Assembly: GCA_021378565.1 (NCBI GenBank)
Contig: JAACJU010000010.1
Coordinates: 3,627 to 67,626, forward strand
Direction: 5' to 3'
Source: Arcobacter sp. LC1
GTDB lineage: Bacteria; Campylobacterota; Campylobacteria; Campylobacterales; Arcobacteraceae
Length of the DNA stretch: 64,000 bases
Below are positions 16,936 to 22,252 of the stretch, one piece after another. Position 1 is the stretch's first letter. Each line of letters begins with the position of its first letter. A program made the position numbers and the translations under genes. The notes below the pieces were generated by a model. The model was not told where the DNA came from and did not search any database. It saw nothing but the letters and a program-made list of their open reading frames with translations.

Positions 16936-17332
16936 TATAGCTATTAAAAAAGATTTTTAAAATATGTTTTATATTTTTAATTAAAAATTTTGTTAGTTAT
17001 GGCTTGTTAGATAGTGCATTATAATAGTATAAATTATGCTTTTATAATCGTATATGCAATAGATTTATTTTCAGCACCATATTTTAAAGATTTAAAGAAA
17101 TATTGCCAACTCATAACTAAGCCTTAACTGAAATAAAATTTTAGTATATTTGTAATTTTATCTAATATTGCATGGATTAGAGCTTATATTTTAGATAAAT
17201 AAGTATTTAATATTTTTTCAATTAAAAGGAATAAAAGTCAAAATAAATTTTAAAAGATTATTCACTTTTTATCTATAAATTTCATATAGTTTTGATTCAG
17301 TGAATATAACCTTTTCTTAAAGAATATTTCAC

Positions 17333-17338
17333 TATAAT
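17333..17338 (+). promoter_or_regulatory. candidate -10 box (TATAAT) of the fez-like operon
   Basis: TATAAT lies 31 nt upstream of the GTG start at 17369. An AAGGAAG ribosome-binding site is at 17356-17362. Confidence 0.4.
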
Positions 17339-17368
17339 TAAATTTGAAAATTTAAAAGGAAGCCTCAA

Positions 17369-17683
17369 GTGTTAGAAATTTCTAAACTAGATGAATTAAG
17401 GTCTTATTTTACTTTAATCCATCATACAAAAGGAAGACTTAGGCTAAGAATAAGTTCTAAGATAAAAAGTGAAAAGCAAAATTTAAAACTTGAAGATATT
17501 GATTCTCTTGTTCTAAAGATTAATGGTATCAAAAGTTTAAAAATCAATGAATTAATCGGTTCGCTTACAATACAATATGATAATGATATTTTTCCAAAAA
17601 ATTTATGGGATGACTTATTAGAGGGTAAAAATTTAGAAAAAATTTGCCAAATAATTAATAAAATAATTAAGGAGTTAGAATAA
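17369..17683 (+). CDS. small soluble HMA-like domain protein (HHTKGRLRLRI motif), first gene of the fez-like operon
   Basis: GTG start with an RBS. The motif HHTKGRLRLR...INGIKSLKINELIGSLTIQYD resembles the N-terminal ferredoxin-like domains found on some P1B ATPases. Its stop abuts the next ATG (TAA ATG). Confidence 0.55.
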   Translation: MLEISKLDELRSYFTLIHHTKGRLRLRISSKIKSEKQNLKLEDIDSLVLKINGIKSLKINELIGSLTIQYDNDIFPKNLWDDLLEGKNLEKICQIINKIIKELE

Positions 17684-18421
17684 ATGAAAGAAAATTTTGA
17701 TCAAGAATTGCTAAGTTCTAAAAAAATTGATACTAAACATTCAGAGCCCATTTTACATCAGATTTTAAGAATAGCAGTTTATGATGAGTATTTTGCCTAT
17801 GAGGCTTATTCAAAAGTTTTAGAGCAATTTGGGGCTATTGAGCCTTTTGTACAAATTGTAGAAAATGAAAAAAATCACTATGTTTTTTTGATAAAGCTTT
17901 TAGAAAAATACCAAGTGCCTGTGCCTATTAATGATTGGGCTTTAAAAATCACAATGCCTCAAAGTTTGCTTGAATGTGCTGAACTTGGAGTTGCAAGTGA
18001 GATAAATAATATAAGATTATATGATTATTTACTAGAATTTGCAGAAGAAGATGACGTAAAAGATGCCTTGTATTTTTTACAAGCAGCGTCTTATAATTAT
18101 CATTTACCAACTTTTAGAGCCTTAGTTTCAAAACTTTTTAACGAAGAAGAAACAAGCACGCAAGATTTTTCTTTAAATCAAGATGATTTATTAGCTAAGC
18201 TTCAGCAATTTCAAGAATTAGGAATTTCTCTTGCAAATGGAGAATTAGACCAAGATAAGCTAACAAAGCTTTTAAGCACTTTTAGCCCTTCATTTTTAGG
18301 TGGCTTAGTTCTTGGTGGAGCAGGAAGTTTTTTTGCTTCATCTATGATAAAAACAAGTGAAGAAGAACAAAAAGAAGATAATGATGAAGATGCAAGCGAG
18401 CAAGGTATTGACAAAAATTAG
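17684..18421 (+). CDS. ferritin-like (DUF2202-type di-iron) domain protein with a C-terminal GxxxG membrane segment and acidic tail
   Basis: Candidate di-iron ligand contexts: YDEYFAYEAY, ENEKNH (ExxH), ASEINN, SYNYH. C-terminal FLGGLVLGGAGSFFASSMI is followed by EEEQKEDNDEDASE. Confidence 0.6.
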   Translation: MKENFDQELLSSKKIDTKHSEPILHQILRIAVYDEYFAYEAYSKVLEQFGAIEPFVQIVENEKNHYVFLIKLLEKYQVPVPINDWALKITMPQSLLECAELGVASEINNIRLYDYLLEFAEEDDVKDALYFLQAASYNYHLPTFRALVSKLFNEEETSTQDFSLNQDDLLAKLQQFQELGISLANGELDQDKLTKLLSTFSPSFLGGLVLGGAGSFFASSMIKTSEEEQKEDNDEDASEQGIDKN

Positions 18422-18463: not shown

Positions 18464-18709
18464 ATGTTTGGCTTTATAATTGGATTAGTTATTGGTGGTG
18501 GCGCTGTTGTTGCCTTGAAAAAAAATAAAGGTGGAGCAAAAGAAATCTTTGACAAGGCTAAAAAAGAGGCAAAAGATAAGCTTAAGCTTGGTAAGAAAAT
18601 TGCAAAAGATGTCAAAAAAGATATTAAAAAAAATATCTCTGAGTCTAAAAATGAGTCTAAGAATGAATCTAAAAAAGAAACTAAAATTAACGAAGAAAAA
18701 GGAGAATAA
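18464..18709 (+). CDS. small membrane protein: one GxxxG helix plus a Lys-rich tail
   Basis: MFGFIIGLVIGGGAVVAL followed by a K/E-rich tail. An RBS AAGGA is present. Three overlapping ORFs in other frames are treated as artefacts. Confidence 0.6.
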   Translation: MFGFIIGLVIGGGAVVALKKNKGGAKEIFDKAKKEAKDKLKLGKKIAKDVKKDIKKNISESKNESKNESKKETKINEEKGE

Positions 18710-18711
18710 AA

Positions 18712-19062
18712 ATGGCAAAATTTTCAATAAACACAGGAGAGCCTAGACATGTTTTCGGGCATTTTGTTAGCGGAGCCGTTGCTTGCGGAATTGCAAGTGC
18801 AACATTAAATTATAAAGATTATAAAAATAAAGAGTTAAGCACTAAGCAAATTTTAGTATCTACACTAAAAACTTCAGTAGAAGGTGGAGCGGTAACTGCA
18901 AGTGCAATAGCAGCTGCAAATTATCTAGGTAAGGGAAATATTTTAGGATTATTAGGAAGTGTATCTTTAGGACTTGCTAGTGTTTATGCAATAGAGCAAA
19001 TATCACAAAAATATCCTTGCAAAAAAGAAGATGAATTTTTAATAAAAAAAGAAGGAAAATAA
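18712..19062 (+). CDS. small Gly/Ala-rich two-helix membrane protein
   Basis: Strong RBS (AAGGAG). Hydrophobic segments FVSGAVACGIASATL and LGLLGSVSLGLASVYAI. Confidence 0.6.
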   Translation: MAKFSINTGEPRHVFGHFVSGAVACGIASATLNYKDYKNKELSTKQILVSTLKTSVEGGAVTASAIAAANYLGKGNILGLLGSVSLGLASVYAIEQISQKYPCKKEDEFLIKKEGK

Positions 19063-19063
19063 T

Positions 19064-19399
19064 ATGCATGATAATCCATACCAAACAGATATAGAAAATA
19101 CAAGAAAATTTAAAAAATCTCACAAAGGTTGTTCAAATCCTTATATAAAATCGAAACAAAATTATAGCCATAATGGCAAGAATTCTAAGCAAGATGGTTT
19201 TTTAGGTGGTTTTGATACTAATGGTTTTTTAAAAGGGGCATTAATTGGAGCTTCACTTACATTTCTTTTAACAAACGAAAAAGTGCAAAAAACACTATTT
19301 AAAACATTTGCAAAAGGCGGAAACCTTGTTCAAGCTGGAATTGAAGAAATGAAAGAACGAATAGAAGATGCAAAAGCAGAGCTTGAAACTAAGGAATAA
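19064..19399 (+). CDS. small membrane protein with a GxxxG-type helix and a C-terminal coiled/amphipathic segment (YtxH-like)
   Basis: The start lies 1 nt after the previous stop. FLGGFDTNGFLKGALIGASLTFLL is followed by AGIEEMKERIEDAKAELE. Confidence 0.55.
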   Translation: MHDNPYQTDIENTRKFKKSHKGCSNPYIKSKQNYSHNGKNSKQDGFLGGFDTNGFLKGALIGASLTFLLTNEKVQKTLFKTFAKGGNLVQAGIEEMKERIEDAKAELETKE

Positions 19400-19400
19400 A

Positions 19401-21545
19401 ATGCAAAAAGTAAGACTCTTACATTCTACTAATAATAGGGCTAGATTTTATTTTGGCTCTTTAAATAAGATTTTAAATATTAGTGAATTTATTTTTGATT
19501 TAGAAAAAAATAAAAAAATAAAAAAAGTAAGAATCAATAAAAAAGTTAAAAGTATAATCCTTATTTTTAAAGATTTAGAAATTTCTTTTTTGCAAGATTT
19601 ACTAGAAAATTTAGAAATTTCTAAATACTTATCTTCTGCAACTTTTTTGAGCCTAAACGAAACTTCAAGCAATGAAAATAAACCTTCTTTAAAAGAAGTT
19701 TATAAATCTTCAAGTGTAATGGCTTTAGTACCTTTGATAAAAAATGATTATGCAAAAATGTTTTTGACATCATTTGCTGTTAGACCTTTGTTAATTGATG
19801 GGTTTAAAGAATTTTTTAAACACGGCTTAACTTCAAGAGTGCTTGAAGCTACTGCTGTGGGTGTTTCTTTTGCAAGAAAGGATTATCTTGCGGCGAATTC
19901 TACAAATGCTTTACTTGAACTTGGAGAATATATAGAAGAAACTACAGTTCATAGAAGTGATGATTTGATAAAAGAATTAGCAAAACCAAATGTAGAAGAA
20001 GCTTGGATTGAAAAGACAAAAGATGGAAAAAAAATCCAAGAAAAAATAAAAACTGCATTACTTAAAGTAAGTGATATCGTTGTAGTTAGAACAGGCGATA
20101 CCATAGCAATTGATGGGCATATTATAAGTGGAAAAGCCCTTGTAAATCAAGTATCTATGACAGGTGAAGCGCAAAGTGTTGAAAAAAGCAGAGGCGATAG
20201 GGTAATTTCAGGAACTATTGTCACAGAAGGCACTATCAAAATATGGGCTGAACAAGTAGGTGATGATACGGCGACAGCTAGAATAAAAAACTATATTAAA
20301 AATTCTTTAGATGAAAAATCAAAAATAGGGCTAAAAGCAAGTAAATTAGCTGATAAATTAGTGCCGATTACTTTGGGCTTAGCAGGTTTTTCTTATCTGA
20401 TTTCAAGAGACTTTAAAAATGTAGCTTCTGTTTTACAAGCTGATTATTCTTGCGCTTTAAAACTTGCAACTCCAGTTGCATTTAAAGCTTCTATTTCTCA
20501 AGCTGGAAGAAATGGCGCTATGATTAAAGGGGCAAAATCTATTGAAAATCTAGCCCTTGCTGATACTTTTGTTTTTGATAAAACGGGAACTTTAACTAAG
20601 GGGCAATTATTAGTTGAGTCTGTTTTGTCTTTTGATAAAAATTGGAGCGAAGAAGAGCTTCTTAATCTAAGTGCTTCAGCTGAAGAGCATTATTTTCACC
20701 CTGTGGCTGAAGCTATTGTAAATGCTGCTAAAAATCAAGGTTTTGTGCATATGCACCATGAAGAAGTAGAATTTATAGTTGCGCATGGAGTAAAAACTAG
20801 TGTGAAAGACAAAGAAGTAATTATCGGAAGTAGGCACTTTTTAGAAGATGATGAAAAAATTGATTTTTCTAAATATGATGAACAGATTAAAAAACTTCTT
20901 GTTAATGGAAATATGGTTTTATATGTGGGCTATGGTAAAAAACTTTTAGGAATTATTAGCTTAAAAGACACGCTAAGAGAAAATGCCAAAGAAAGTATTA
21001 TAAAACTAAAATCGCTTGGTGTTAAAGAAATTATTATGATAACAGGAGATATAGAAAGCAAGGCAAAAGAAATCGCTGATGAGCTTGGCATCGATAAATA
21101 TTACGCAAATGTTTTACCCACACAAAAAGCCAAAATTGTAAAAGACTTAAAAGATGAAGGCAAAAATGTAGCTTTTATAGGAGACGGCATAAACGACGCA
21201 CCTGCTTTAATTAGTGCAAATGTTGGGATTTCTATGCACAAAGGTGCAGATATTGCCAAGGCGACAGCTGATATTGGACTTTTAAAAGATGATATTGCTT
21301 TGGTAGCTGAGCTAAAAGAATTGTCAAATAAAACGCTAAGTAGAATTAATAGAAATTTTAAGGCTACAGTTGGCATCAATAGTCTTATTTTATTTAGTGC
21401 TACACTTGGAGTTTTAAATCCTATTTCAACAGCTGTACTTCATAATGGTACAACTATTGCACTTTTGATTAACTCTTTAAGAAAAATAAATATTGATAAT
21501 GCAAACAATACAAATAATCCAAATAAAAAAGCAAAGAAAGCATAA
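19401..21545 (+). CDS. P1B-type heavy-metal ATPase, P1B-6-like (FezB-like)
   Basis: DKTGTLT (FVFDKTGTLT), TGE (MTGEAQ), MITGD, GDGINDAPAL. The TM4 motif is SCA (ADYSCALKLATP) instead of CPx. The last TM has HNGTT. There is no CxxC metal-binding domain. The start is moved to ATG 19401 (RBS AAGGAA, 1 nt after the upstream stop) rather than the track start 19368. Confidence 0.85.
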   Translation: MQKVRLLHSTNNRARFYFGSLNKILNISEFIFDLEKNKKIKKVRINKKVKSIILIFKDLEISFLQDLLENLEISKYLSSATFLSLNETSSNENKPSLKEVYKSSSVMALVPLIKNDYAKMFLTSFAVRPLLIDGFKEFFKHGLTSRVLEATAVGVSFARKDYLAANSTNALLELGEYIEETTVHRSDDLIKELAKPNVEEAWIEKTKDGKKIQEKIKTALLKVSDIVVVRTGDTIAIDGHIISGKALVNQVSMTGEAQSVEKSRGDRVISGTIVTEGTIKIWAEQVGDDTATARIKNYIKNSLDEKSKIGLKASKLADKLVPITLGLAGFSYLISRDFKNVASVLQADYSCALKLATPVAFKASISQAGRNGAMIKGAKSIENLALADTFVFDKTGTLTKGQLLVESVLSFDKNWSEEELLNLSASAEEHYFHPVAEAIVNAAKNQGFVHMHHEEVEFIVAHGVKTSVKDKEVIIGSRHFLEDDEKIDFSKYDEQIKKLLVNGNMVLYVGYGKKLLGIISLKDTLRENAKESIIKLKSLGVKEIIMITGDIESKAKEIADELGIDKYYANVLPTQKAKIVKDLKDEGKNVAFIGDGINDAPALISANVGISMHKGADIAKATADIGLLKDDIALVAELKELSNKTLSRINRNFKATVGINSLILFSATLGVLNPISTAVLHNGTTIALLINSLRKINIDNANNTNNPNKKAKKA

Positions 21546-21796
21546 TGGATAAAACAATAAAAGCTAAAACTAATTTAGAAACAAAAAAAGAATTAGCAAA
21601 AATAGGAATGAGTGTTTCCATGGGCTTAACTGTGCTAAGCTCTTTTTCTATGAAATCAAAAACTATGAAAAATATCCATTTAGGCGCTGGAGTTGCTCTT
21701 GTTGGATTTTCTTTTTGGCACTATGCTTTGTATGAAAAAGATAAGAAAATTAAACCAAGTAAATTAGACAAACTAGACAAAATAAAAAAGCCTTAA
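21545..21796 (+). CDS. small two-helix membrane protein, last gene of the fez-like operon
   Basis: Its ATG overlaps the ATPase stop (TAATG). Hydrophobic segments IGMSVSMGLTVLSSF and LGAGVALVGFSFWHYAL. Confidence 0.55.
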   Translation: MDKTIKAKTNLETKKELAKIGMSVSMGLTVLSSFSMKSKTMKNIHLGAGVALVGFSFWHYALYEKDKKIKPSKLDKLDKIKKP

Positions 21797-21949: not shown

Positions 21950-22252
21950 ATGAAAAATCTATTATTAGTTATATCAGCAATATTATTTTTAAGTGGGTGC
22001 AATTTTGATTATTTAAAATCAGGTAAAGAATTAAAAAAAGAAATTAGTCAAATTAAAAAAAGAGACCCGTATGGCTTTGATGGCGAATTAGATAAAAAGT
22101 TAGCTAGTTTGCAAAAGGCTTTTTATAATACTGCTGAGGGTAAAGCTCAGCTAAAAGCAAACAAAATACATAATGACAAGATATATAAACAAATAGTAAA
22201 AGACTCAAAGCTAAGCCCTGAAGCTAAAAAATGGTGGGCGGAAAGAGAATAA
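21950..22252 (+). CDS. small lipoprotein
   Basis: Signal peptide with a lipobox: MKNLLLVISAILFLSGC. Confidence 0.7.
   Translation: MKNLLLVISAILFLSGCNFDYLKSGKELKKEISQIKKRDPYGFDGELDKKLASLQKAFYNTAEGKAQLKANKIHNDKIYKQIVKDSKLSPEAKKWWAERE

Follow-up and report, generated by a model that had tools for sequence, protein, structure and literature searches.

Could a lipid-bounded iron store carry a ferritin-like protein of its own and, if so, what would such a protein do there? The question is raised by a 245-aa open reading frame (gene 2; 17684..18421, + strand) in a 64,000-nucleotide stretch of Arcobacter sp. LC1 DNA, referred to here as the window, whose positions are used throughout. Ferrosomes, iron stores bounded by lipid, have been recognised only recently, and studies have so far dealt with the FezB pump and a few small membrane proteins. 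The fez operon of Shewanella has been expressed in E. coli. The best overall explanation, and one held with good confidence, is that gene 2 belongs to a ferrosome (fez) operon of an Arcobacteraceae bacterium and that its product is the DUF2202-type Fez protein.

A preliminary description of this DNA had read the product as a ferritin-like di-iron domain joined to a Gly-rich membrane helix and an acidic tail, and the motifs it quoted, the helix and the tail are all present where it placed them. It had also regarded the architecture as unknown in described fez clusters, and this was mistaken. [quoted passage not shown] Searchable literature yielded no other paper mentioning DUF2202 and no functional study of the fez DUF2202 protein. 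The gene 2 product is a catalogued but functionally uncharacterised protein type, not a new kind of protein or system.

A ferritin-like bundle in a tail-anchored protein

Gene 2 is the second of seven tightly packed + strand genes; its ATG directly adjoins the TAA of gene 1, and a Shine-Dalgarno sequence, AGGAG (17670..17674), lies 9 nt 5' of it. The protein begins with a hydrophilic N-terminus (MKENFDQELLSSKKIDTKHSEP), in which neither the sequence nor its hydropathy reveals a signal peptide, and contains one Cys (C98). Most of its length is taken up by a four-helix bundle (aa 23-158; 17750..18157, + strand), assigned from an AF2 model, Foldseek and the Pfam Rubrerythrin profile. The AF2 model, a monomer built with a 24-sequence alignment, has helices A (23-49), B (55-75), C (95-117) and D (123-158) with a long B-C crossover. 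Its pLDDT exceeds 90 over aa 10-150 (by blocks, 91-98 over aa 11-150 with one block at 75) and is low past residue 159.

Structural and sequence searches converge on the same relative. Foldseek against the PDB places MJ0754 of Methanocaldococcus jannaschii first (3q4n, E=1.3e-4, TM to target 0.67); the next matches are Rv2844 and numerous bacterioferritins and ferritins. A search with the family profile also ranks MJ0754 first (E=6.7e-5, 18-19% identity) and adds a weak match to the encapsulated ferritin 5n5e over helices C-D (E=0.0097). MJ0754, a DUF2202 structure (PDB 3Q4N/3Q4O/3Q4Q/3Q4R), is thus the best match in both sequence and fold, and shares the ExxH of helix B, the Glu of helix C and a helix D with Ser and Asn-His in place of the canonical Glu; the deposited chain differs in having no C-terminal Gly-zipper anchor. 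The ferritin-like superfamily fold of the preliminary description is confidently predicted.

Domain profiles place the protein less sharply. In hmmscan it scores 22.2 bits with Pfam Rubrerythrin (PF02915) against a cut-off of 22.8; the genome search with the same model gives 22.3 bits, or 24.3 when neighbouring stretches are summed in frame. PF09968 (DUF2202) has no hmmscan match to the protein at E<=1, while precomputed PF09968 matches exist for many of the homologs at 45-50% identity, and source records from Arcobacter, Malaciobacter and Halarcobacter name homologs "DUF2202 domain-containing" or "ferritin-like". The bundle shares with those of ferritin, bacterioferritin and rubrerythrin the up-down-down-up order with its long B-C crossover, a helix A Glu with a Tyr seven residues later, the ExxH of helix B, the Glu of helix C and the His of helix D; it differs from them in having Tyr/Phe for the second bridging Glu, no PF00210 match, no rubredoxin domain and a predicted membrane anchor where they have cage-forming elements. 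Two assignments were rejected: a cage ferritin, since hmmscan finds no PF00210 (ferritin/Bfr/Dps) match in the protein, and a true rubrerythrin, since one ligand is missing and a rubredoxin-type Cys4 domain is absent, C98 being the sole Cys.

A candidate metal site with five of six ligands

Does the bundle hold a di-iron site? The preliminary description had pointed to four ligand contexts, and they hold up in part. DEYFAYEAY supplies E35 and Y42, ENEKNH supplies E62-x-x-H65, ASEINN supplies E106 and SYNYH supplies H140. SYNYH is not ExxH, and Y137 occupies the canonical Glu position. The protein therefore departs from the six-ligand pattern (E, ExxH, E, ExxH), keeping five of the six. The codons of the candidate ligands span 17786..18103 on the + strand (E35 at 17786, E62 at 17867, H65 at 17876, E106 at 17999 and H140 at 18101), a span that also contains Y42, Y113, Q133, S136 and Y137.

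How should the residues be matched to those of canonical sites? The family profile aligned significantly neither to a canonical Bfr-like protein nor to a ferritin, both from related genomes, so the register is drawn from the bundle's internal repeat and from alignments with EncFtn and MJ0754. Within the bundle, E35...Y42 of helix A corresponds to E106...Y113 of helix C, and E62-x-x-H65 of helix B to Y137-x-x-H140 of helix D. When EncFtn is aligned, its ExxH Glu faces Y137 and its His faces H140, and MJ0754 helix D likewise has Ser/Asn-His with the Glu absent. The convergence of these comparisons in sequence and heptad register suggests that five canonical di-iron ligands (E35, E62, H65, E106 and H140) are kept and that the sixth is Tyr/Phe; at this position the 80 sequences of public loci have Tyr in 57 and Phe in 23. 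With a single bridging carboxylate, the putative centre resembles a ferritin ferroxidase centre more closely than that of rubrerythrin.

Conservation points to selection on this site. An alignment of 24 homologs (44-82% identity) shows no variation at E35, Y42, E62, H65, E97, E100, E106, Y113, Q133, S136, N138, H140, G207 and G211, among other positions, and the features of the protein thus go well past what chance would give. The candidate-site residues of gene 2 recur in 79-80 of the 80 public-locus sequences, a figure that is partly circular for helices A and D because the loci were retrieved with patterns from these two helices. E62, H65, E97, E106, Y113, G207 and G211 lie outside the search patterns, and three of them, E62, H65 and E106, occur in 80/80 Campylobacterota sequences at an overall identity of about 45%, a retention that argues for selection on the site.

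Linker, Gly-zipper helix and tail

Past the bundle lies a conserved linker (18158..18292, + strand) with two predicted helices, defined by conservation and by AF2 at a pLDDT of only 47-59. Its G186, in an SGN-D motif, is invariant in the 24-homolog alignment and present in 77 of the 80 public-locus sequences. The linker leads into a Gly-zipper hydrophobic helix, FLGGLVLGGAGSFFASSMI (aa 204-222; 18293..18349, + strand), delimited by conservation and hydrophobicity scales and carrying G207xxxG211. This GxxxG is invariant also among distant representatives of the family. The helix is uniformly apolar, with a Kyte-Doolittle mean of 1.56, an Eisenberg H of 0.68 and a hydrophobic moment of 0.03; its Hessa-scale sum of +2.8 kcal/mol denotes marginal insertion, and its AF2 pLDDT is below 50. 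Similar Hessa sums, from +2.1 to +5.6, characterise the other Gly-zipper proteins of the operon.

The charges flanking the helix carry no orientation signal. The absence of a signal peptide, taken with the one C-terminal hydrophobic helix, instead points to a tail-anchored protein whose membrane insertion is predicted, with the bundle facing the cytoplasm and the short tail lumenal or periplasmic. An anchor of this kind sets the protein beside two comparisons. The small proteins FezA, FezE and FezG, as described in the available text of Grant et al., likewise have a hydrophobic region with a conserved GxxxG and are encoded beside FezB, but have no folded ferritin-like domain. EncFtn, an encapsulin cargo, is likewise a ferritin-like module that a C-terminal element guides to a compartment for iron storage, but it is a two-helix unit whose di-iron site forms between subunits, and its targeting is by a peptide into a protein shell, not by a lipid anchor.

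The acidic tail, KTSEEEQKEDNDEDASEQGIDKN (aa 223-245; 18350..18418, + strand), had been taken as a defining feature of the protein, a view that the family contradicts. With 23 aa, 10 D/E and 3 K/R (net charge -7), it lies at the extreme of a distribution in which 79 family tails have a median length of 11 aa and a median net charge of -1, 51 being negative, 12 neutral and 16 positive. The tail is common to gene 2 and a relative of 81% identity. A strongly acidic tail is lineage-specific and not a family feature.

A seven-gene operon around a FezB-type pump

Gene 1 (17369..17683, + strand) encodes a FezD-like, 104-aa soluble HMA_2 protein (Pfam HMA_2, E=1.2e-8, 35.4 bits against a cut-off of 30) with an R-rich GRLRLR stretch, and an HMA_2 gene lies immediately 5' of the DUF2202 gene in 80/80 loci. 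Four further genes on the + strand separate or follow gene 2 and the pump. Gene 3 (18464..18709) encodes an 81-aa Gly-zipper protein with a Lys-rich tail and is found in 66/80 loci; gene 4 (18712..19062) a 116-aa membrane protein similar to the MamC family (NCBIfam MamC, E=9e-8, 32 bits, below the cut-off of 100); gene 5 (19064..19399) a 111-aa YtxH/ssl2009-like Gly-zipper protein, recognised by profile matches and present in 77/80 loci; and gene 7 (21545..21796) an 83-aa membrane protein with a weak DUF4405 match (Pfam, E=0.017), present in 56/80. Orthologs of gene 4 in two public loci (L109 and L111) carry a precomputed PF26373:MamC match. Judged by profile similarity, a magnetosome MamC-family protein is a conserved member of Campylobacterota fez operons (77/80 loci).

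The pump itself is gene 6 (19401..21545, + strand; an alternative upstream ATG lies at 19368), a P1B-6 ATPase of FezB type (TIGR01525, E=4.4e-143). FezB is defined in the available text of Grant et al. by D[Y/F]SCA, HNxxT and an R-rich N-terminus, and gene 6 has this signature: an N-terminal RAR (19437-19445), DYSCA (20442-20456) and HNGTT (21441-21455), together with DKTGT (20577-20591), all on the + strand. The likeness to the published type, within the same text, extends from the protein to its setting. The DUF2202 domain, the C-terminal GxxxG region and the clustering with a P1B-6 FezB are shared, as are the R-rich HMA-like, other GxxxG and DUF4405-like proteins alongside, a DUF4405 protein being listed among the conserved fez proteins. 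Gene 2 differs in coming from the Arcobacteraceae, a family that the searched text does not name, and in its unusually long acidic tail.

Upstream of gene 1, the block CTTTTCTTAAAGAA-ATTT-ACTATAAT (17300-17340) is near-identical in the 81%-identity relative, whereas the remaining intergenic DNA has diverged. It contains a candidate -10 box of the operon promoter, TATAAT (17333..17338, + strand). Across the -35 region runs a near-palindrome, TTCTTAAAGAA, which by its sequence could be an operator. A scan for promoters and terminators was uninformative in this AT-rich DNA, with 22 promoter-like sites against 26 expected. At the other end, the operon is followed by a 100-aa lipoprotein (21950-22252, + strand) with an LPAM_1 lipobox (E=0.003), at whose place the nearest relative has two 98-aa ORFs before the S10 operon. 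The operon of that relative (81% identity) is the same and lies, likewise, just upstream of the S10 ribosomal operon.

Co-occurrence with FezB

Is the pairing with the pump more than local? Across 184 Arcobacteraceae genomes, the DUF2202 gene and a FezB ortholog are each found in 100; they occur together in 99 genomes, each is alone in one, and 83 genomes carry neither of them (Fisher p about 1e-50, uncorrected for phylogeny). The link to a P1B-6 ATPase proposed in the preliminary description, which had suggested this very comparison, is thereby borne out. Where the two genes share a contig, they lie on one strand with the DUF2202 gene upstream in 97/97 cases, at a gap of 896-2300 bp; the five exceptions are on short contig pieces. 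Two DUF2202-FezB pairs with identical or near-identical scores are seen in one genome (G107, at C1:733922-737772 and C2:1093119-1096969), and likewise in G017 and in L026/L032; genuine duplication and redundancy in the assemblies are both possible explanations.

The arrangement extends beyond the family. The 80 public loci come from Arcobacteraceae, Sulfurimonas, Sulfurovum, Sulfurospirillum, Hydrogenimonas and a few MAGs that bear other labels. In every one of the 74 that extend far enough downstream, the DUF2202 gene is followed at 0.9-1.4 kb by a D[YF]SCA/HNxxT ATPase, and the order of all seven genes is the same in 49 of the 80. Four further Campylobacterota families show the same arrangement. 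One reading of the locus, that an unrelated ferritin-like gene happens to stand beside the ATPase, has nothing in its favour except that DUF2202 proteins are common outside fez clusters (1458 cluster representatives at E<=1e-3); it is refuted by the 99/1/1/83 co-occurrence and the strict synteny, and its chance of being right is negligible.

Orthologs without ligands and relatives outside fez clusters

The candidate site is less constant at greater distance. Among 24 distant full-length cluster representatives with a mean column identity of 33%, no columns but Q133, G207 and G211 are invariant, and eight of the 24 have at least one ligand missing while retaining Q133 and the GxxxG. The clearest case is P0150, from a Campylobacteraceae MAG (L109:4226-4915), with the replacements E35H, Y42A, H65A and H140L. 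Its locus reads Fur, HMA_2, P0150, a 104-aa protein, a MamC-like protein, a 103-aa protein and a DYSCA ATPase, so that P0150 fills the same slot as gene 2; the fur gene (L109:3338-3796) lies immediately upstream of this fez operon. Since some same-slot orthologs have no ligands, metal binding is not required in every member. A phylum-wide genome search with P0150 returned the canonical form only, and scanning metagenomes for the subfamily without ligands yielded a single short contig.

Helix C behaves differently from the other helices: E97, E100 and E106 (17972-18001) persist almost throughout the family, even in most members without the ligands of helices A, B and D. These glutamates may form a second metal site or a partner-binding surface.

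Outside fez clusters, four DUF2202 relatives were inspected, and the C-terminal GxxxG anchor is absent from all four. Three of them (P0147, P0170 and P0185) have a hydrophobic, signal- or lipoprotein-like N-terminus, unlike the fez type, and P0200 is without one. Among non-fez relatives (P0127, P0147, P0149 and P0161) there are proteins in which two to four DUF2202 domains stand in tandem, and the hydrophobic N-termini of some resemble those of lipoproteins or signal peptides. This suggests an extracytoplasmic DUF2202 branch, separate from the tail-anchored fez branch.

Iron storage in the host genome

The host genome, 99.8% complete, has no match to PF00210 (ferritin/Bfr/Dps) anywhere, and its only match to the Rubrerythrin model is gene 2. 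PF00210 is found above cut-off in 142 of the 184 family genomes, and the only genus among 22 without it is that of the host. The idea that fez systems and classical ferritins are mutually exclusive was rejected, as most fez-positive genomes among the 184 have PF00210.

What could the protein do?

The most likely role, put forward tentatively, is capture and buffering of cytosolic Fe(II) and, with the HMA_2 protein, its hand-off to FezB, possibly with oxidation. The bundle would bind one iron ion or two in a ferritin-type centre with five ligands, in which Tyr/Phe replaces the second bridging Glu. It could then take up and buffer Fe(II) from the cytosol at the cytoplasmic face of the organelle and, with the HMA_2 protein, pass it to FezB; when O2 or H2O2 is present it might also oxidise the iron. 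Within the ferrosome membrane, the GxxxG helix would pack against FezB or against the further Gly-zipper proteins of the Fez set, and the long acidic tail of the host lineage may add lumenal cation binding. A predicted cytoplasmic bundle, next to the cytoplasmic domains of FezB and the HMA_2 protein, favours such capture and hand-off over nucleation in the lumen.

Could the anchor, the linker and the bundle instead have a structural role? This is a serious rival with a real, if smaller, chance of being right: the GxxxG helix and the linker would assemble or curve the ferrosome membrane, and the bundle would be a spacer or docking module whose metal site is ancestral baggage. Q133, G207 and G211 as the sole invariant columns among distant representatives, the eight of 24 representatives that have lost one or more ligands and the ligand-less P0150 in the same operon slot are all as such a scaffold would have them, and membrane-shaping roles for GxxxG proteins have been proposed by Grant et al., in the text available. 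Baggage of this kind is harder to reconcile with E62, H65 and E106, which were not search patterns, in all 80 Campylobacterota sequences, or with the ferritin-type spacing of a Tyr seven residues after the Glu that is kept in both E35-Y42 and E106-Y113. The preliminary description had proposed a ferroxidase or nucleator acting on the stored mineral, its acidic tail binding iron as acidic magnetosome proteins do. A 23-aa tail of net charge -7 that would be lumenal if the helix spans the membrane, the net negative charge of 51 of 79 family tails and a MamC-like protein in the same operon are in keeping with that proposal. Most tails are short and weakly charged, however, and 28 of the 79 are neutral or positive. 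Without a signal peptide the bundle cannot easily reach the lumen. The mineral of C. difficile ferrosomes is a vivianite-like Fe(II) phosphate, so mineralisation needs no oxidation and no ferroxidase. For the last two reasons, and because same-slot orthologs without ligands exist, a lumenal nucleator role is doubtful, and this model is given a low probability. What stands of the preliminary interpretation is the fold, the Gly-rich helix and the linkage to the P1B-6 ATPase; the novelty of the architecture and the tail as a hallmark do not.

An equally improbable alternative is a rubrerythrin-like peroxide scavenger on the organelle surface, which would shield both the Fe(II) store and the cytosol close to it from Fenton chemistry in these microaerophiles. 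The closest Pfam model is indeed Rubrerythrin (22.2 bits, 24.3 summed in frame), ferrosome iron is redox-active Fe(II), and a host genome without PF00210 is also without the usual Dps-type protection. The protein, on the other hand, has no rubredoxin domain and one Cys (C98), hence no obvious route of electron entry, and one bridging Glu is absent; isolated ferrosomes, moreover, are already insulated from H2O2 by their membrane. Bolder than any of these readings, and unlikely, is that gene 2 encodes the first enzyme-like ferrosome accessory: a tail-anchored, cytoplasm-facing di-iron protein that would couple consumption of O2 or H2O2 to the capture of iron and its loading by way of FezB. In a lineage without ferritin, bacterioferritin or Dps, iron storage and detoxification would then rest solely on this protein and the fez operon, and the acidic tail would serve as a lumenal nucleation site.

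Implications for ferrosome biology

The DUF2202/GxxxG protein is the only Fez component whose fold suggests direct iron chemistry. To its one-sentence record are added a putative site with five ligands, a bundle predicted to face the cytoplasm, naturally occurring orthologs without ligands, which are suitable as controls, and a conserved seven-gene operon of the Campylobacterota. Gene 2 offers a good experimental handle on ferrosome biology and not a new architecture; in a host without classical ferritins, loss of the fez system should give a clear iron phenotype.
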